DNA of 64,000 bases from Candidatus Dormiibacterota bacterium (GCA_035601655.1 DATNNV010000031.1:561-64560); one strand, 5' to 3'. Numbered from the stretch's first letter, positions 27,873-35,915 are shown. Notes: generated from the letters alone by a model not told the origin. Numbers and translations: made by a program.

Positions 27873-28688
27873 CTATTTGTGGGTGAGGGTGCCGGTTGTT
27901 TTGGTGCGGCGGACGGCCCAAGCGAAAGCGCTCATGGATAGGGGAAGAAGAATCGCGGCGAAGAGGAGGAGAGCGACGAGCGGGCGCCAGAGTGAGGCGA
28001 GGGTGGCGCCTGTCAGCAGGGCGGCGCGCATGGCGTCGAGCGCGTAGGTGACGGGGTTGAGACGCGCGATTACTTGAAGCCACGCAGGAAGAATGGAAAC
28101 GGGAAAGAGCGTGCCTCCTACGATGCCGGTGATTCCGAGCACGAACCACTTCGCGGGATTGCCGCGCTTGAAGACGAGCAGGTAGCTGGAGGAGAGAATG
28201 CCGAGTCCGGAGAAGGCCAGCAGGGAAGCGAGAAGGACGGCGAAGACGGAAAGCCAATTCGCGGAACGCAGCGGGAAACCGAAGAGAATGGCGGACCAGA
28301 AGAAATAGACGGCGATGCGGAGAGTGGTGGCGACGAAAGGATAGAGCGCGGAACCGGCCACGAAAATGGGCAGGGAAGTTTGCGTGATGAGCAGGTGCTC
28401 GAGGGTGCCGGAATCGCGGGCTTCTTCGAGGCTATGATCGAAAGTGTCGAGGGCGGCGTTGAGATAGTCCAGAAAGACGAAACCGATAAGGGAGAAGGTG
28501 AAGTAGCTGCCGCCTTGCGGGAGAGCTTGCTGGAGTCCGGGGCTGTCGACGAAGCGCGCGACGTAATAGAAGGTGGCGGCACCGAAAAGGGCCTCGACGG
28601 CTTCGACGATAAACACGGTGCGATAGGAGCGCGCAATGGTTAGATCGCGCCAAAAGAACAGCCACATCTGGCGGAGTGCGGCGATCAT
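27873..28688 (-). CDS. ABC-2 type exporter permease (lasso cluster)
   Basis: About 6 TM helices, EEARDSGTLEHLL and FPVSILPAWLQVIARLNPVTYALDAMR. Confidence 0.9.
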   Translation of the reverse strand: MIAALRQMWLFFWRDLTIARSYRTVFIVEAVEALFGAATFYYVARFVDSPGLQQALPQGGSYFTFSLIGFVFLDYLNAALDTFDHSLEEARDSGTLEHLLITQTSLPIFVAGSALYPFVATTLRIAVYFFWSAILFGFPLRSANWLSVFAVLLASLLAFSGLGILSSSYLLVFKRGNPAKWFVLGITGIVGGTLFPVSILPAWLQVIARLNPVTYALDAMRAALLTGATLASLWRPLVALLLFAAILLPLSMSAFAWAVRRTKTTGTLTHK

Positions 28689-29533
28689 TCGACGGAAGCC
28701 TCGGTGTGAGGTTCGCCGCCGCGGCCGGTGAGGCGGAGAAAGACTTCTTCGAGCGTGGGCGCTGATGTGCGTCGCTGCAAAGCAGAGAGCGAGTCGCAGG
28801 CGAGCAAACGGCCGTGATCGATGATGGCAATGCGATCGGCGAGGCTTTCGACTTCGGGGAGGGTGTGGGAGGCGAAGAGAATGGAAGTGGCGCCGGGCTG
28901 AAGTACTTGCGTTTTGAGAAAGCGGCGGAACTCGGCGGCGGCGATGACGTCGATGCTGCGGGTGGGCTCGTCCAAGAGGAGTACGCGAGGACGATGGAGG
29001 AGAGCGCGGGCGAGGCTGAGGCGCTGAACGGTGCCGGAAGAAAGGGTGCGGACCTGGCGATCGAGGAATTCGCCAAGGGCGAACTGGGTGGCCAGCGTAG
29101 CGATGCGCTCTCGAGCCATGGAAAGGGAAAGGCCATTGAGCTGGCCGAAGAAAAGGAGATTTTGGCGAGCGGAGAGGCGCGGATAGAGGCCATGATCGGT
29201 GCCGGCGTGATAGCCGAGCTGGCGGCGGACGTCCCGCGAATGCGTGAGAGTGTCGTAGCCGGCGACGCGCGCGCGGCCGGCGGTGGGAAGGAGCAGGGTG
29301 GCGATAATGCGCAGGAGCGTGGACTTGCCTGCACCGTTGGCTCCGAGGAGGGCGACGGACTCGCCTTCGCGGACTTGCAGGGACACCTCCGCCAAGGCGG
29401 CGACGCTGGCTTTTTCAAAGGGCTGAAGGAAGGCGCGCCAACCGCTGCGCGCTGGCGGGAAGGACTTGTCGAGCGATTCGACGGAAATGGCGGGTGAAGT
29501 CACCAGGAGACTTATAGCGTGAGTGACGGGCAC
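28685..29533 (-). CDS. ABC exporter ATP-binding subunit (lasso cluster)
   Basis: GANGAGKST, LSSGTVQR, LLLDEP and SH switch. Start may be GTG 29503. Confidence 0.92.
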   Translation of the reverse strand: MPVTHAISLLVTSPAISVESLDKSFPPARSGWRAFLQPFEKASVAALAEVSLQVREGESVALLGANGAGKSTLLRIIATLLLPTAGRARVAGYDTLTHSRDVRRQLGYHAGTDHGLYPRLSARQNLLFFGQLNGLSLSMARERIATLATQFALGEFLDRQVRTLSSGTVQRLSLARALLHRPRVLLLDEPTRSIDVIAAAEFRRFLKTQVLQPGATSILFASHTLPEVESLADRIAIIDHGRLLACDSLSALQRRTSAPTLEEVFLRLTGRGGEPHTEASVE

Positions 29534-29691
29534 AAGACAATGCGGTTAGGGATGCGAAGTGGTGCGTGCCGGGGCGGACGGATGGCGCGTAGCGGAGCGC
29601 GCGAAACATGGATAGAATAGAGAACCGGACATCGCAAACCCCAGCCCCTGCAATGTCTTCGACCGCGGAGTGCCCGCGCAGGAGCCGAGAC

Positions 29692-29997
29692 ATGGTTTCA
29701 TTTACAGATCGTGCCAAAGTGCCCTCGCATGTGCTGATACGTTTCCTCGAGGAAGAGTCGGTGCTGCTGAACCTGGACACGGAGCGTTATTTCGGGCTGG
29801 ACGGGACGGGAACGCGGATGTGGCAGGCGGTCACCGCGGCGCCCAATATCTCCGTGGCTTACGGGGAGTTGCTCCAGGAGTTTGATGTCGAGCCGGAATT
29901 GCTGCGCACGAATTTGACGGATTTGCTCGGGCGGCTGCTGGACAACGGACTGCTCGAGGTGCGTCCTGGGGATGTGGGAACGGCTGCGGCGGTTTAG
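29692..29997 (+). CDS. PqqD-family RiPP recognition element (lasso B1)
   Basis: AGGAG RBS; ESVLLNLDTERYFGLDGTGTRMW...LLQEFDVEPELLRTNLTDLLGRLLDNGLL. Confidence 0.92.
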   Translation: MVSFTDRAKVPSHVLIRFLEEESVLLNLDTERYFGLDGTGTRMWQAVTAAPNISVAYGELLQEFDVEPELLRTNLTDLLGRLLDNGLLEVRPGDVGTAAAV

Positions 29998-30430
29998 CGC
30001 GCTGGATGGACAAGCGCAAAGGATGTTTCTGTGGGCGATGTTCGCGTTGCCACTGGTGTCGCAGAGCCTGAGGTGGCGCGGGCTTCGCGCGACGCAAGAA
30101 AGCCTGCAGCGGCGCCAAGCGCCGGGCAGGAAGCCTACTAAGTCCGAAAGCCAAAAGTTGGAAGTGACTGTGCGGATGGTGAAGGCCGCGGTGCGCCACG
30201 GCCTGGGTCATCCCACGTGTCTGGAAGAATCCTTGACGCTTTGGTGGCTGCTGGCGAGTCAGGGGATTCCCTCGGAAGTACGGATCGGCATCCGCAAACA
30301 GGCGGAGAATTTTGAGGCGCACGCGTGGGTGGAGCGCGATGGCATCGCGTTGAACGAGCCCGAAGCAAAGCACCGGCATTACGAGGCCTTTGCATCAGAA
30401 TTTCCCCCGGCTGGAGGAGAGATACGATGA
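29972..30430 (+). CDS. Lasso peptide leader peptidase (B2, transglutaminase-like)
   Basis: PTCLEESL (catalytic Cys), RIGIR and FEAHAWVE (catalytic His). Overlaps the RRE and cyclase genes. Confidence 0.92.
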   Translation: MWERLRRFSALDGQAQRMFLWAMFALPLVSQSLRWRGLRATQESLQRRQAPGRKPTKSESQKLEVTVRMVKAAVRHGLGHPTCLEESLTLWWLLASQGIPSEVRIGIRKQAENFEAHAWVERDGIALNEPEAKHRHYEAFASEFPPAGGEIR

Positions 30431-32274
30431 GCGGGTTCGCGGGCGTGGTCAGCAGCGATGGCGCACCCGTGGACGCGGGCCTATTGGGGCGGATGGCGGA
30501 GCAGCTGGCGTTTCGCGGACCGGACGCAAGCGCCGTACGAATACTGGATGGCGCGGGGTTCTGCTTTACATTGATGCGCACCGGTCCCGCGCCGCAAGAG
30601 GAAGTGCAGCCACTCAGTCTTGACGGACGGCAGTGGCTGATCGGGGACATCCGTTTGGACGGGCGCGAGGATCTGCGTAAAGCGCTGAGCCAAGCCGGCC
30701 AAGAAACTCCTGCGACGATGGCGACGGATGAAGAGCTGACGCTGCGGGCCTGGCAGTTGCGCGGCGCAGAATCCGGCGAGCTGCTGATGGGGGACTACGC
30801 GTTCGCCGTATGGGAGCCGGGTGTCCGGCGGCTGGTCTGCGTGCGCGATGTGATTGGAGTGCGGCCGTTCTTTTATGGCCAGGTGGGCAACACGCTGTGC
30901 TTCAGCAACACGCTGGAGGTGTTGCGGATGGTGCCGGGCATGGATCTGCGGGTGGATGCGCATTTTGTCGGCGACTTTCTGCTGGAGGGCTGGTGCTTGG
31001 ACCCGGAACGGACGGTGCATCGAGGCATCCGGCGGCTGAAGGCCGGACACCTGGTGCAATTTGAGAATGGAGTTGCGGCAACGCGGCGCTTTGCCGAGTT
31101 GCCGATGAGAGCGCCGCTGACGTACCGGCGGGCTGAGGACTACGTCGAACAGTTTCAATCGCTCTTGCAAGCTGCGGTGCGCGAACGGATGCCGCGAGCC
31201 CCTGCTGCTTTCTTCATGAGCGGAGGGTTGGACTCCACGAGCGTGGCTGCGACGGCGGCGCAGACCGCGGAGGGCGCTGGTGCGAAAGGAAGTTTTCGCG
31301 CGTATACGGTCGATTTTCGTCCGATCCTGGAGGACGACGAGGCACGGTTTGCAATAAAGGCGGCCGGGTATATTGAAATGTCCATCGAGATCGTGCGGGT
31401 AGGCGACGAGCGGCCGTTCGGCTGTTGGACTGATAACAGTCTTCGATGGCCTGAGCCGCTGCATGAACCGTTTCAATCGCGACACGTGCAGATGTGCCGG
31501 GAAGTGAGTGGGTTTGCCCGAGTGAGTATGTCGGGCGACGGAGGCGACGACATTCTTTCGGGAACGGCGACACCATATGCCCGCTATTTAGCGAGGGACG
31601 GGCAGTTCCTGAAGTTGGCGACGGCCTTCACCGGATTCCTGTGGCGCCAAAAACGGCTGCCGACAATGGGTACCGGACTAAGAGCCCGCTTGCGGAAATG
31701 GAGAACCGCAGAGCGGGAGGAGGGCTCGCTACCGCAGTGGCTGCAACCCGAATTCGCCAGGAAGCTGGGCCTCCGGGAGAGGCAGAAAGAGCTGAGGCGC
31801 GGGTTGCGATACACGCATGCGTTTCATCCCGGAGGATACGCTGCGTTGTCGCAGGGGTACTGGGCAGGGGTTTTGGAAGATGAGGACGCCGCGTGGACCG
31901 GGGTGCCGCTAGAACGGAGAGCGCCGTTTCTGGACCGGCGGCTGGTGGAATTTCTGCTGCAAGTGCCGCCAGTGCCCTGGTGCATGGATAAAGAGCTTCT
32001 GCGCGAGGCCATGCGAGGATTACTGCCCGAGGAAGTGCGTACCCGGCCGAAGACGCCGCTCCGGCAGGAGCCGTTTGCGGCTCAGGCAGAGCGGTTGAAG
32101 TGGAGCCCGTTGCCGCTGGAGCGGAATCATCCCATTCTGGACGAATTTGTGGACTGGAAAAAACTGGAAGCAACTTTGCAAAGGGTCCCGGGTTCGCAAT
32201 TATGGGACGAATTGACGCCGGTCTCGCTGCACCACTGGGCGAAAGCCGTTGAAAATGACGGGGTAATTCTGTAG
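30427..32274 (+). CDS. Lasso cyclase (asparagine-synthetase-like C protein)
   Basis: Begins MSGFAG, so the glutaminase Cys of AsnB is replaced by Ser. RGPD, RDVIGVRPFFY, SGGLDSTS, SGDGGDD and RAPFLDRRLVEF. ATGA coupling to B2. Confidence 0.92.
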   Translation: MSGFAGVVSSDGAPVDAGLLGRMAEQLAFRGPDASAVRILDGAGFCFTLMRTGPAPQEEVQPLSLDGRQWLIGDIRLDGREDLRKALSQAGQETPATMATDEELTLRAWQLRGAESGELLMGDYAFAVWEPGVRRLVCVRDVIGVRPFFYGQVGNTLCFSNTLEVLRMVPGMDLRVDAHFVGDFLLEGWCLDPERTVHRGIRRLKAGHLVQFENGVAATRRFAELPMRAPLTYRRAEDYVEQFQSLLQAAVRERMPRAPAAFFMSGGLDSTSVAATAAQTAEGAGAKGSFRAYTVDFRPILEDDEARFAIKAAGYIEMSIEIVRVGDERPFGCWTDNSLRWPEPLHEPFQSRHVQMCREVSGFARVSMSGDGGDDILSGTATPYARYLARDGQFLKLATAFTGFLWRQKRLPTMGTGLRARLRKWRTAEREEGSLPQWLQPEFARKLGLRERQKELRRGLRYTHAFHPGGYAALSQGYWAGVLEDEDAAWTGVPLERRAPFLDRRLVEFLLQVPPVPWCMDKELLREAMRGLLPEEVRTRPKTPLRQEPFAAQAERLKWSPLPLERNHPILDEFVDWKKLEATLQRVPGSQLWDELTPVSLHHWAKAVENDGVIL

Positions 32275-32295: not shown

Positions 32296-32451
32296 ATGAG
32301 TCGGCCGGCAGAGGCTTCTGCGAAGAAACCATACCAGGCGCCGAAATTGCTCGTTTACGGCAACTTGACAGAGATAACCCAGGCACGCTCCACCAAGCCG
32401 AGTTCAAAAGACGGAGCGACCATGGGTGTGAAGCGCAAGACAGGCCGATAG
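32296..32451 (+). CDS. Lasso peptide precursor (51 aa; absent from ORF track)
   Basis: MSRPAEASAKKPYQAPKLLVYGNLTEITQ-ARSTKPSSKDGATMGVKRKTGR*: a full YxxPxLxxxGxxxxxT leader motif, GGGAGA RBS, located between cyclase and kinase. Confidence 0.92.
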   Translation: MSRPAEASAKKPYQAPKLLVYGNLTEITQARSTKPSSKDGATMGVKRKTGR

Positions 32452-32492: not shown

Positions 32493-33509
32493 GTGAGTTA
32501 TCGCTATCGCTTATACGGATTGAGCCTTGAGGCAGAAGAAAGCCTGCCGGGACTCGAAGACAATAGCGCAGCTCGCGAGGAAAGCTTTGTCCGTTTGCAG
32601 CTTGGCGCGGAGCCGGACTGGGTCCGGCACGCGCGCAGCCTTGCCTCTCGCCGCGTCCATCAGCTGGAGGCCAAGGCCGAAAGCGACGATCCCGCCCTTG
32701 TTATAACCTCGTACGGAGAAGACCGTTTTTTTGGGTTGGCGTATACGGACGGAACCCAATTTTTGACCGATGCGGATGGCGGGCGCCTGTGGGGTGCATG
32801 GGCGGAGCCGTGGACCAAGGAAGATTTCGCAACGTATCTGTTGGGGCCGGTATTGGGCTTCGTGCTCCGGCGGAGAGGTGTGACGCCGCTGCACGCGAGC
32901 GCCGTTTGTGTTGCGGGGAAGGCCGTCGTTTTCTGCGGCGATGCGCAAGCGGGTAAATCAACGACAGCGGCGGCACTGGGACTGCGCGGCGTGCTGGTCC
33001 TATGCGAAGATATCGCGGCGCTGAGGTTGGCCGACAATCGCTACTGGGTGGAGCCGGGTTATCCGCGCGTTTGCCTGTGGCCCGACAGCGTGGAAAAGCT
33101 GCTGGGACGCGGCGATGCGCTGCCGCTCTTGACGCCGAATTGGGAGAAGCGCTACTTGCCGCTGGACGGAGTGCTGGCGGGCTTCCAACGGGAAAGATGC
33201 CCGGTGGGCGCGGTTTATATGCTGGCTGAGCGAGCGGCGGAGGGGCGCGCGCCCCGCGTCGAAAAGATGACTCCGAAAGAGGCGCTGCTGGAATTAGTGC
33301 AGAATACGTACATGAATTGGCTGCCGGATCGCGAACAGCGGGCGCGGGAGTTCGAGGCGCTGGCGAAATTGGTTGCGCAGGTACCGGTGCGACGGATGGT
33401 GGCGCACTGCGATGCGAGGCGCATGGACGATCTGTGCCGCGTCATCCTGGCGGATGCCGCGAGCTTGCTCACGGGCCGGATCGCAGCTTCTGAGCCGGTG
33501 CAGCGCTGA
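32493..33509 (+). CDS. HPr-kinase-like RiPP kinase
   Basis: PLHASAV, Walker A GDAQAGKSTTAA, LCEDIAAL and PGYPRVCLWPDS, in lasso cluster context. Confidence 0.85.
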   Translation: MSYRYRLYGLSLEAEESLPGLEDNSAAREESFVRLQLGAEPDWVRHARSLASRRVHQLEAKAESDDPALVITSYGEDRFFGLAYTDGTQFLTDADGGRLWGAWAEPWTKEDFATYLLGPVLGFVLRRRGVTPLHASAVCVAGKAVVFCGDAQAGKSTTAAALGLRGVLVLCEDIAALRLADNRYWVEPGYPRVCLWPDSVEKLLGRGDALPLLTPNWEKRYLPLDGVLAGFQRERCPVGAVYMLAERAAEGRAPRVEKMTPKEALLELVQNTYMNWLPDREQRAREFEALAKLVAQVPVRRMVAHCDARRMDDLCRVILADAASLLTGRIAASEPVQR

Positions 33510-33510
33510 A

Positions 33511-34656
33511 ATGTACGATCTCGATCAATACGGCGCAATGATCGTGGACGGCACGCGAACTTCCGCGTACATGCAAGCGATCGCGCGGGCGGTGCGGCCG
33601 GGCGACGTGGTCGTGGATCTGGGATGCGGTCCTGGGCTGCTTGCGTTGCTGGCATGCCGCGCGGGAGCGAAGCGGGTGTACGCGATTGAAGGCAACGAAA
33701 GTGTGGCGTTCGCGAGAGAGCTGGCAGCGGCCAACGGCTATGCCGACCGGATCGAAATCCTACACGGGTCGTCGCGGCGGATGGAATTGCCGGAGCGCGC
33801 GAACGTAATCGTTTCTGATTTGCGCGGCGTGCTGCCGCTTCTTGGCGATGCCATCGCTTCTATCGATGATGCGCGGGAGCGGTTTCTTGCTCCCGGTGGC
33901 GCGATGATCCCGGCGTCGGATCGTTTGCATGGAGCGCTGGCGGGCGCGGCGGAGTTCTACGCGCAAATCGTCTCACCGTGGAAGGACTCGCTGGACGGCG
34001 TGCGGCTATCGCCGATGCGGGAACGCGCGCTCAACACAACGTACAGCGTGCGCTTCGACGCCGGAAAGATGATGAGCGAAGCTCAGGAATGGGGCCGGTT
34101 TGAGTATCCGTTGGGCGCGAAAGGGCGAGCAGCCGCGAACTTGAGATTTGAGGCATTGCGCGATGGCACGGTGCATGGGATTTGCTTGTGGTTCGATACG
34201 GTCCTGTTTCAGGAGATCGGCTATTCGAGTGCGCCGGCCGCGCCTGGCGCGCCGGAAACCGTCTACGGACAATTGTTTCTGCCGTGGATCGAGCCCGTGA
34301 AGGTTGAGGCAGGCCAGGAGATTTTGGTTGATTTACACGCGGACCCGGTCGGGGACGGCTACATCTGGCGGTGGGACACGACGATTCCGGGAGAAGAGAA
34401 TGCGCGAACACTTCGGCAGTCCACGATGGAAGGCGTGCCGTTTTCGCTCGAGGTGCTGCGAAGGCGCGCCACGGAATTTGTGCCGAAGGCGTCGCCGTTC
34501 GGTCAGGCGGAAGCGTGGGTGCTGCAGAGCATGAATGGAACGACCTCGCTGCAAGAAATTGCGGACGGAGCGGCAGCGCGGTTTCCGAAAGTGTTCCGCA
34601 ATTCGCAGGAAGCGCTGCAGCTGGTTTCCAGGCTTTCGGACGAGTTTGCGCTGTAA
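33511..34656 (+). CDS. SAM-dependent methyltransferase with PRMT-like fold and C-terminal PqqD/RRE-like helices
   Basis: MIVDGTRTSAY, VVDLGCGPGLL, AGAKRVYAIE, VIVSDLRG, ARERFLAPGGAMIP and HGICLWFD. Tail WVLQSMNGTTSLQEIADGAAARFP. ATG 33511. Confidence 0.85.
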   Translation: MYDLDQYGAMIVDGTRTSAYMQAIARAVRPGDVVVDLGCGPGLLALLACRAGAKRVYAIEGNESVAFARELAAANGYADRIEILHGSSRRMELPERANVIVSDLRGVLPLLGDAIASIDDARERFLAPGGAMIPASDRLHGALAGAAEFYAQIVSPWKDSLDGVRLSPMRERALNTTYSVRFDAGKMMSEAQEWGRFEYPLGAKGRAAANLRFEALRDGTVHGICLWFDTVLFQEIGYSSAPAAPGAPETVYGQLFLPWIEPVKVEAGQEILVDLHADPVGDGYIWRWDTTIPGEENARTLRQSTMEGVPFSLEVLRRRATEFVPKASPFGQAEAWVLQSMNGTTSLQEIADGAAARFPKVFRNSQEALQLVSRLSDEFAL

Positions 34657-34684: not shown

Positions 34685-35851
34685 TTGCGAACGACATCGC
34701 CATTAAGCGAACTCGGAGCTTCCGCGGAGTGGCAGATTCTGCTGGAGTGCGCTGCGACGCGCGGTGATCCGGCTGGCTTGAACGAACTGCTGCGGAAGGC
34801 GAATTGGGATTTTCTGATCGAGCTTGCCGAAGAGCACGGCGTTATTGGCATGGTTGCGGCGCGGCTCCGCGAGTGCGACGAGACGATCGTGCCGGCGGCG
34901 TTTCGCGGGCAATTACTGGAACGACAGCGATCTCACGTGCTTTCCGCATTGAGCTTGATCGCGGAAATGATTCGCATCCTGAACCGCTTCGGCGAGGCGG
35001 GCATTCAGGCGCTGGTGCTGAAAGGGCCGGCGCTTTCGCTGCAGGCCTACGGCGATGCGACGGCGCGGCAATATGGCGACGTGGATCTGCTGGTGAGGCA
35101 AAAAGACATTTATCGGGCCACGGAGATCATGACGCTGGCTGGATTTGACGCGGACGTGCCGCTAGCGGCTGTTGCTGCCGGCAAGATTCCCGGCGAGTAC
35201 CTATTCTTGCGGACGAATACCAAAGTGATCGTGGAGTTGCACACCGAAAAAACGCTGCGCTACTTTCCGAATACCCTGGCGATGGAAAGATTGTTCGACC
35301 AGCATACGACGTTGGATTTTAACGGGCATGCGGTGCCGACGCTGTCGAGCGAAGATGCGCTGGTGGCGATGTGCACGCATGGAGCGAAGCATTGTTGGGA
35401 GCGGCTGATGTGGATCGCGGATGTTTCGGCAATGTTGAGGCGGCAGACGGGAATGGATTGGGAAGGTGTCGCGCGGATCGCGGAGAGTTTGGGTGCGCAG
35501 CGCATTGTTTACACGGGGTTGTTGCTGTCGCGCGAGCTTTTGCGTGCGCCGGTGCCTGCTGCTGTGGAAGAGCAGGCGCGTGCGGACCGGTGGGCGTGCA
35601 AGTTGGCGAGGAGGATCGAGGCGTGGCTGCCGGCTGCTGGAGAGGCATCGCCGGGATTGCTGCGCCGCGCTGTCTTTCGGGCGCAGATGCGCGGCGGGTT
35701 TTTGCACGGGATCGGCTACCTCGCGAGACTTTTGTTTTCACCGACTGAAGAGGATTGGAGAGAGGGTCACGAGCACAAGAGTTCGCGGCTTCTGGAAACG
35801 GGGCGGCGGCTGGTTCGTCTGGCCGGAAAATACGGACGAGATCCCAATTAG
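34685..35851 (+). CDS. Nucleotidyltransferase family protein (NTP_transf_5-like, RiPP-associated)
   Basis: LVLKGPALS, RQYGDVDLLV, VELH and HGAKHCWERLMWIADV. Start uncertain (TTG 34685). Confidence 0.85.
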   Translation: MRTTSPLSELGASAEWQILLECAATRGDPAGLNELLRKANWDFLIELAEEHGVIGMVAARLRECDETIVPAAFRGQLLERQRSHVLSALSLIAEMIRILNRFGEAGIQALVLKGPALSLQAYGDATARQYGDVDLLVRQKDIYRATEIMTLAGFDADVPLAAVAAGKIPGEYLFLRTNTKVIVELHTEKTLRYFPNTLAMERLFDQHTTLDFNGHAVPTLSSEDALVAMCTHGAKHCWERLMWIADVSAMLRRQTGMDWEGVARIAESLGAQRIVYTGLLLSRELLRAPVPAAVEEQARADRWACKLARRIEAWLPAAGEASPGLLRRAVFRAQMRGGFLHGIGYLARLLFSPTEEDWREGHEHKSSRLLETGRRLVRLAGKYGRDPN

Positions 35852-35881: not shown

Positions 35882-35915
35882 AAAAGGCCCGGAGCATTTG
35901 TTCCGGGCCTTTTTT
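35882..35915. terminator. Bidirectional rho-independent terminator; right boundary of the RiPP cluster
   Basis: AAAAGGCCCGGAGC-ATTT-GTTCCGGGCCTTTTTT. Confidence 0.85.

Follow-up and report, generated by a model that had tools for sequence, protein, structure and literature searches.

A lasso peptide gene cluster from Candidatus Dormiibacterota encodes a methyltransferase with a protein arginine methyltransferase fold and a family-wide altered active site

The stretch of DNA analyzed here, 64,000 nucleotides of one strand from a Candidatus Dormiibacterota bacterium (GCA_035601655.1, DATNNV010000031.1:561-64560; hereafter the window, numbered 5' to 3' from its first letter), contains a lasso peptide operon in which one gene, at positions 33511-34656, encodes a methyltransferase (MT) with the fold of the protein arginine methyltransferases (PRMTs). 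This protein is best described as a real, uncharacterized and widespread enzyme, a derived member of the PRMT fold that very likely serves as an accessory tailoring enzyme of the kinase-type lasso pathway. The gene and its parts, with the evidence for each, are as follows.

33511-34656, plus strand: gene for the PRMT-fold, S-adenosylmethionine (SAM)-dependent methyltransferase MT, 381 residues (homology, Pfam, structure model)
33511-33930, plus strand: MT residues 1-140, N-terminal helices and Rossmann SAM-binding domain (CARM1 alignment, conservation in 71 relatives)
33931-34395, plus strand: MT residues 141-295, PRMT beta-barrel with helical arm (PRMT5_C above cut-off, model secondary structure, fold match)
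34396-34494, plus strand: MT residues 296-328, conserved linker with F301, Q303, S304, L316 and P325 (conservation, models)
34495-34653, plus strand: MT residues 329-381, three-helix tail like alpha1-alpha3 of PqqD and the RiPP recognition elements, or RREs, where RiPP denotes a peptide made on the ribosome and modified after translation (profile, Foldseek, VIA-align, Pfam)

The open reading frame (ORF) runs from the ATG at 33511 to the TAA at 34654-34656, and the stop codon of the upstream kinase gene (TGA, 33507-33509) lies one base before it. A longer, TTG-initiated frame from 33373 was rejected, since all homologues begin at an M-Y-(S/D) equivalent to 33511. These limits agree with a first-pass annotation made from the sequence alone, and every motif that it listed was found.

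That annotation had also proposed a PRMT-like enzyme, and the fold is indeed that of the PRMTs. The best PDB sequence matches retrieved by phmmer were all PRMTs (CARM1, E 2.2e-25 over residues 4-269; PRMT6, 5e-24; yeast Hmt1, 4e-22). Among Pfam families, PRMT5_C reached 34.5 bits against a cut-off of 30.3 and PRMT_C matched weakly; generic Rossmann families, including PrmA and Methyltransf_25, matched residues ~17-133 only. An AlphaFold2 model built on an alignment of 71 relatives had a mean predicted local distance difference test score (pLDDT) of 96.1 and a predicted template modeling score (pTM) of 0.89. Searched against the PDB with Foldseek, this model retrieved PRMTs only (E ~1e-28), and it superposed on PRMT8, PRMT1 and Hmt1 with template modeling scores of 0.86-0.87 by target and a root mean square deviation (rmsd) of 2.3-2.5 Å over ~315 columns. 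The class I Rossmann/SAM domain of type I PRMTs is present, N-terminal closing helix included, and the predicted structure has their beta-barrel with its inserted helical dimerization arm (helices 147-157 and 167-174). The barrel carries H222-G..W227-F228-D and T250-V251-Y252, the latter replacing the Thr-His-Trp (THW) motif. The type I PRMT architecture is complete in MT, a SAM-dependent methyltransferase: it has the helices at the N-terminus, the Rossmann domain and a beta-barrel bearing the arm.

In public databases the family is named either "50S ribosomal protein L11 methyltransferase" or "protein arginine N-methyltransferase 1", and neither name is supported by the tests made here. The first corresponds to PrmA, whose PF06325 profile is matched over positions 148-257 of 296 only, with the L11-binding domain absent, and whose TIGR00406 model gives 31 bits against a cut-off of 183; the fold, moreover, is that of a PRMT, and the structure search returned barrel-containing PRMTs rather than a PrmA-like or small-molecule methyltransferase lacking the barrel. 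Action on a cellular protein instead of a peptide, whether for self-protection or on ribosomal protein L11 as the database name implies, would fit the folded proteins that PRMT-fold enzymes normally modify. It is nonetheless highly improbable: the PrmA match is confined to the Rossmann part, the clade to which MT belongs goes together with lasso genes and has a tail like that of PqqD, and the genome holds just one other gene, a weak class I methyltransferase match, that responds to the MT query.

The neighboring genes place MT within a complete operon of gene order B1-B2-C-A-K-MT-N, accompanied by a divergent exporter.

27873-29533, minus strand: divergent ABC-2 exporter (permease 27873-28688, ATPase 28685-29533)
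29608-29997, plus strand: B1, stand-alone PqqD-type RRE (PF05402, 47.8 bits, above cut-off)
29972-30430, plus strand: B2, transglutaminase-core leader peptidase (PF13471, 75.9 bits)
30427-32274, plus strand: C, asparagine-synthetase-like lasso cyclase (Asn_synthase, 8.9e-38; 4-nt overlap of its start with the B2 stop)
32296-32451, plus strand: A, precursor peptide of 51 residues (NF033528 lasso_cyano, 33.9 bits against a cut-off of 33)
32493-33509, plus strand: K, HprK-like P-loop peptide kinase (weak HprK_rel_A match)
34685-35851, plus strand: N, PF14907 nucleotidyltransferase-like protein (NTP_transf_5, 1e-58)
35882-35913, no strand: 12-bp GC-rich hairpin with flanking A/T runs, between N and a convergent gene for a PDZ protein

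The assignment of the gene to a lasso cluster is thus borne out: a precursor with the leader motif and Thr-2, an RRE (B1), a transglutaminase-type peptidase (B2) and an asparagine-synthetase-like cyclase (C) are all encoded. The best NCBIfam match of the cyclase is the lasso cyclase model NF033535 (E 7.3e-73, below its cut-off). The leader of precursor A contains Tyr-17, Pro-14, Leu-12 and Thr-2, and the spacing of the first three is the same as that established experimentally for BsfA (PMC10368454). The predicted core (32383-32448) has 22 residues, begins Ala-Arg-Ser and ends KRKTGR. Residues H134, G149, G154-K155-S156 and D173 of the kinase are conserved in 17 relatives. The start of N is uncertain, the in-frame TTG at 34685 being the first start past the MT stop, and the hairpin, which resembles a bidirectional terminator, is the probable end of the operon. 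The same genome carries another lasso-type set (contig C77, locus L056:6600-9450, minus strand), in which B1 and B2 are accompanied by an HprK-like kinase and a PF14907 gene; the stretch retrieved there contains neither an MT nor a cyclase match, and a nearby leader-like ORF stops three residues past Thr-2.

Split B1/B2 proteins, a cyclase, an HprK-like kinase and a PF14907 "nucleotidyltransferase" are shared with the kinase-type lasso clusters, namely Bsf of Bradymonas sediminis (BsfA/B1/B2/C/D/K/N), paeninodin and pseudomycoidin. The kinases of the Bsf and paeninodin type have been described (PMC10368454), and in Bsf the B1 protein also stimulates the kinase (PMC10368454; PMC9266682). The clusters as described differ from the present one in having no methyltransferase; their phosphorylation sites are Ser3 or a C-terminal Ser, whereas here a [KR][TS] motif lies near the C-terminus.

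The residues that distinguish MT from known PRMTs are concentrated in the active site. Conservation was counted over the 71 MT relatives, which share 35-82% identity. The SAM-binding residues are kept: M10, D13, R16 and Y20 align to CARM1, G38, G40 and G42 of the motif VVDLGCGPG are invariant, and position 60 is Glu in MT and in 60 of the relatives and Asp in the other 11. In the same CARM1 alignment the first Glu of the double-E loop corresponds to Asp103 of MT (present in 69/71), the second to Gly112 with Asp113 adjacent, and T-H-W to T-V-Y. The position of the second Glu is unconserved, column 112 being G, Q, E, A or D and column 113 variable, and the THW position reads x-(I/V)-Y-G (Ile in 36, Val in 27, Tyr252 and the following Gly in 62 each). 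Two residues are newly conserved, Arg105 (60/71) and Pro109 (71/71), so that the site of the double-E loop is occupied by Asp103-Leu-Arg105-Gly..Pro109. All three features named by the first-pass annotation, the first Glu read as Asp, the second Glu not evident and the THW loop altered, hold family-wide. MT lacks two defining features of the type I PRMTs, the double-E loop and the THW loop, and because both fail it was not filed as an arginine methyltransferase.

Comparison with other PRMT-fold proteins is informative about these residues. MT resembles CARM1/PRMT4, PRMT6, PRMT1/Hmt1, PRMT8 and PRMT2 in its MxxDxxRTxxY helices, Rossmann motif I with the post-I Glu, and barrel with helical arm. 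It differs from these eukaryotic type I enzymes in its S-D-L-R-G-x-L-P loop, its (I/V)-Y-G motif, the extra conserved linker and the PqqD-like tail, and in being a bacterial gene of a RiPP operon with partner peptides that are mostly free of Arg. Bacterial PRMT-like proteins of the same fold family (L038, L040-L042, L044, L045), which come from Zetaproteobacteria, Haliangiales, Planctomycetia and Polyangiaceae, are 31-35% identical to MT over residues ~5-280. Unlike MT, they retain both Glu residues and THW, are tail-less at ~305-325 residues, are not neighbored by lasso genes and lie outside the lasso-linked clade. More specifically, they read S-E-x-x-G...(D/H/A)-E-x-M together with T-H-W, in contrast to S-D-L-R-G-x-L-P with (V/I)-Y-G in the lasso-linked proteins. 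In a quick maximum-likelihood tree the 32 lasso-linked MTs fall on one side of a branch with a Shimodaira-Hasegawa-like approximate likelihood ratio (SH-aLRT) support of 98. Because the non-lasso homologues retain Glu, Glu and THW and the lasso-linked proteins form one clade, the altered residues are a clade character tied to the lasso context and not the drift of a single gene. Judged from the alignments, the lasso-linked clade has replaced the arginine-clamping residues, with Glu becoming Asp103, the second Glu no longer kept, (I/V)YG in place of THW, and Arg105 and Pro109 as new residues. The specificity of MT is, in our estimate, likely to be something other than canonical arginine methylation.

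The family is large and widely distributed. An indexed search returned at least 2201 homologues, and the best 120 are nearly all of ~380 residues with 97-100% coverage; at E<=1e-30 the family comprises 1275 representative clusters. The order B1-B2-C-A-K-MT-N is found in no fewer than seven phyla: Acidobacteriota, Cyanobacteriota, Chloroflexota, Deinococcota, Gemmatimonadota, Pseudomonadota and Thermodesulfobacteriota. The kinase is present in 27 of 32 MT-anchored loci. Reciprocally, of 80 kinase-anchored metagenome loci, MT is present in 54 and missing from 15, and 11 are too short to decide; a locus was scored as MT-less only where at least 1.5 kb lay downstream of the kinase, which leaves 69 decidable loci.

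The closest relative of the window cluster (L057:4802-7252; identity 71% for B1, 61% for K and 73-76% for the ABC exporter) runs from K directly to the PF14907 gene with MT absent, and its core starts Ala-Arg-Ser, as does that of the window. Because this most closely related cluster proceeds from K to N without it, MT appears to behave as an optional cassette that has been gained or lost.

The close association of MT with the kinase raises the question of whether the methyl group is placed on the product of a neighboring enzyme. K and MT are tightly coupled, with a gap of 1 nt in the window and of no more than 118 nt in 52 of the 54 kinase-anchored loci that have MT, and the conserved Arg105, standing in place of the active-site Met of PRMTs, could bind an anion. 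Both points would suit an O-methyltransferase acting on a phospho-Thr or phospho-Ser made by the kinase, on a group added by the PF14907 protein or on the C-terminal carboxylate, this last being the only group common to every core. Such O-methylation is unlikely, given the conserved acidic Asp103 at the acceptor-binding position and the lack of similarity in Pfam to known lasso O-methyltransferases or to protein isoaspartyl methyltransferase (PIMT); neither the O-methyltransferase nor the PCMT families of the known lasso enzymes are among the Pfam and NCBIfam matches of MT. Because MT also occurs in clusters without a kinase match (L024, L027, L030) and in others without an N-gene match within the flanks retrieved (L017, L022, L023, L025), an obligatory phosphorylated or glycosylated acceptor is argued against.

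Two Polyangiaceae loci of the kinase-less kind (L027:3458-7125 and L030:3466-7125) encode two paralogous PRMT-fold MTs each and a short core devoid of Lys, G-I/L-R-x-G-G-x-E...G-M-V-G-M-M-V. Since both the kinase and Lys are absent from these two loci, MT would be able to work there without phosphorylation, which leaves Arg3 or some other group to serve as acceptor.

The first-pass annotation had further proposed that the core, rich in Arg and Lys and ending KRKTGR, is N-methylated, or that the enzyme has a new acceptor specificity. Precursors were extracted from all loci by the Tyr-17 register, which gave 73 distinct cores from clusters with MT and 12 from clusters without it; their composition is as follows.

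Cores containing Arg: 31 of 73 with MT, 10 of 12 without MT
Cores containing Lys: 68 of 73 with MT, 9 of 12 without MT
Cores containing Lys or Arg: 72 of 73 with MT, 12 of 12 without MT
Cores containing Met: 49 of 73 with MT, 2 of 12 without MT

A [KR][TS] motif located 1-4 residues from the C-terminus, which includes the K-T of KRKTGR, is present in 63 of the 73 cores with MT and in 10 of the 12 without it. Because it is equally frequent in MT-less clusters, this motif appears to belong to the kinase and was dropped as a site for MT. The enrichment of Met (67% vs 17%) and the depletion of Arg (42% vs 83%) were likewise set aside as diagnostic of MT, being not universal and phylogenetically confounded. 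Comparison of MT loop residues 110-117 with the core C-termini gave no pattern of correlation.

The same counts bear on whether MT might still be a true protein-arginine methyltransferase, with Asp103 substituting for the first Glu and R2, R18 or R22 of the window core as its target. The full PRMT fold with its SAM motifs, the three Arg residues of this core and the acidic residue found at column 112 or 113 in some members (D113 here) are consistent with that proposal. Arg is missing, however, from 42 of the 73 partner cores and is rarer in the presence of MT than in its absence, and the second Glu and THW have been lost throughout a clade whose non-lasso bacterial homologues retain them; arginine methylation by MT is thus quite unlikely. 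Because those 42 cores lack it, Arg apparently cannot be the family-wide acceptor, and of the two alternatives in the first-pass annotation it is the new acceptor specificity that is the better supported. Lys is the most widely available side-chain nitrogen in the cores with MT. Since most partner cores lack Arg and nearly all contain Lys, the Lys epsilon-amine is the best single guess for the acceptor, a tentative one that we would hold at about one chance in three; the candidates in the window core are K5, K9, K17 and K19.

Other features of the cores are of note in their own right. Several cores with MT are extremely rich in Met, for example ...G-M-M-T-M-M-M-M-P. The predicted first core residue is often Asn (22/73) or Thr (15/73) and not Gly, Ala, Ser or Cys (L017, L021, L028, L039, L076 and others); Asn1 has been shown experimentally once, in metanodin (PMC12670498). 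The lone acidic residue in the predicted core of the window is Asp10, an unusual ring acceptor. In the Tyr-17 register, and counting from position 7 onward, an acidic residue first occurs at position 10 in 23 of the 73 cores with MT and 3 of the 12 without it, and the extra residue follows Gly6. This pattern suggests candidate 10-residue macrolactam rings or, alternatively, cleavage one residue later.

The C-terminal part of MT was examined for a possible docking function. The barrel ends near residue 295 and is followed by the conserved linker, in which Q303 is present in 70 of 71 relatives and which is retained even in relatives that have no tail. Because it is modeled confidently only within full-length MT and not in a tail-only model, the linker probably packs on the catalytic domain. 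The tail beyond it forms helices 329-340, 347-357 and 365-379. The first-pass annotation had likened this region to the PqqD winged helix, and for the helical half the likeness holds up in four weak, concordant tests. A profile of 71 family tails had PqqD 3g2b as its top PDB match (E 0.058); a tail-only model searched with Foldseek ranked 3g2b first (probability 0.87, E 0.93); VIA-align of the tail against 48,161 chains also placed 3g2b first (Z 6.7, rmsd 2.2 Å over 49 residues, 29% identity, chain residues 38-86); and Pfam PqqD (PF05402) was matched by 29 of the 71 tails scanned singly, with a best E of 2e-4. The tails further share the motif typical of PqqD, hydrophobic-x-x-x-D/N-G-x-x-S/T-x-x-E-I-A. 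The next families on the 71 tails were PKMT_2nd with 8 matches and PaaA-like_N with 5, the latter perhaps an RRE in its own right. The tail of the window MT taken alone had no Pfam match even at E<=10, and it showed no BLASTP similarity to B1 of its own cluster.

The half of the annotated likeness that does not stand is the sheet. DSSP assignments of the full-length and tail models show helices only, with beta1 and beta2 missing and a beta3-like F-x-P-x-L-S/N segment before the first helix. In comparison with PqqD and the lasso B1 RREs (PDB 3g2b, 6jx3), the three C-terminal helices superpose, whereas the winged helix is short of its beta1-beta2 strands and similarity to the cluster's own B1 is not significant. 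The tail is probably a PqqD-derived half-domain consisting of the beta3-like segment and alpha1-alpha3. PqqD has more support than a winged helix of the PKMT type, for which the evidence considered was an atlas lead at 0.81, the 8 of 71 Pfam matches and a Z of 5.0 for the C-terminal domain of Rv2067c; the catalytic architecture of Rv2067c and PKMT differs from that of MT (PMC10739865).

Tail-less members form distinct groups. The ESM Atlas contains separate family clusters of ~316-326 residues. MTs of the Pyrinomonadaceae type (L028:3360-4340, L029, L031, L032, L083, L089 and others), of ~315-329 residues, end just past the Q-S-T linker with the PqqD-like helices absent, and their partner cores are near-invariant, N-A-G-P-K-G-N-L-D-G-G-G-G...P-K-T-G-x, with Met and Arg absent. 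The tail thus appears dispensable in some lineages.

As to the reaction, MT is very likely a lasso tailoring methyltransferase, which would methylate the precursor or the lasso peptide, once or several times. N-methylation would be the most likely chemistry and is favored over O-methylation of an anion because a carboxylate is kept at position 103, where in PRMTs it hydrogen-bonds the acceptor nitrogen. The position of this PRMT Glu is also that of the Asp or Asn in the (D/N)PPY amino-methyltransferases. The tail probably assists the docking of MT, either to the leader peptide or to the complex of leader and B1.

Other SAM-dependent tailoring enzymes of lasso peptides are known, namely the C-terminal carboxyl O-methyltransferases LasF and StspM, the latter acting on the linear precursor (PMC9266682), and the PIMT-type enzymes TceM and LihM. 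Their folds and families are unrelated to that of MT, and the chemistry proposed for MT is N- and not O-methylation. As the first-pass annotation had stated, described lasso methyltransferases are of these two kinds only; reviews from 2022 and June 2026 limit their products to C-terminal O-methyl esters and PIMT-type aspartimide (PMC9266682; PMC13352647). No description of a PRMT-like lasso enzyme was found in the literature searched, although a passing bioinformatic mention may exist in the RODEO (PMC5391289) or paeninodin (PMC4919450) papers. The methylation made by MT is therefore probably of a kind so far undescribed for lasso peptides.

Several observations weigh against this interpretation and against the docking role of the tail in particular. 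Taken singly, none of the PqqD matches of the tail reaches significance, and the four concordant tests are only partly independent. An hhalign comparison of the tail profile with 18 cluster B1 proteins was not significant (E 0.043, probability 1%), with the helices in correct register. Of 42 complete MTs from kinase-anchored loci, the tail is present in 27 and missing from the other 15, and a complete stand-alone B1 is already encoded in the MT cluster. These points, with the tail amounting to no more than the helical half of an RRE, leave the leader-guided action proposed by the first-pass annotation as a possibility. With regard to the acceptor, no core feature cleanly separates clusters with MT from those without it, and the contrasts in Lys, Arg and Met may be phylogenetic, as most MT-less cores share one leader type. 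Five cores with MT have no Lys, and that of L017 has neither Lys nor Arg. Within the active site, column 114 is His in 36 of the 71 relatives and Ala in the MT of the window. A predicted complex of MT, SAM and precursor scored 0.03 against a mark of 0.32, which gives no verdict and was not used either way.

On balance, and with the guess of Lys left aside, a derived PRMT-fold enzyme that methylates lasso precursors at an acceptor other than the canonical Arg is the explanation that we moderately favor as a whole. The fuller proposition, that a PRMT-fold clade of more than 1000 sequence clusters, spread over many bacterial phyla, has exchanged arginine methylation for action on a different nitrogen of lasso precursors, most plausibly that of Lys, with docking through a vestigial half-RRE, is one to which we would give somewhat less than even chances.

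The prevailing view of PRMTs is of enzymes confined essentially to eukaryotes, with an arginine clamp that does not vary. Here, a large bacterial clade keeps the fold, changes exactly the clamp residues and is wired into RiPP biosynthesis. Knowledge of the acceptor would give lasso peptides, whose scaffold is of pharmaceutical interest, one more kind of modification, would provide a natural experiment in PRMT substrate specificity and would put right the widespread misannotation as "L11 methyltransferase". With seven genes in ~6 kb, the clusters are small enough for heterologous expression to address the question of the acceptor directly, and the window cluster and its closest relative L057 provide a natural pair with and without MT. 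If the acceptor is Lys or another nitrogen, lasso peptides N-methylated on a side chain would be seen here for the first time, in combination with phosphorylation, and the family would become a new model of how PRMT specificity is rewired.

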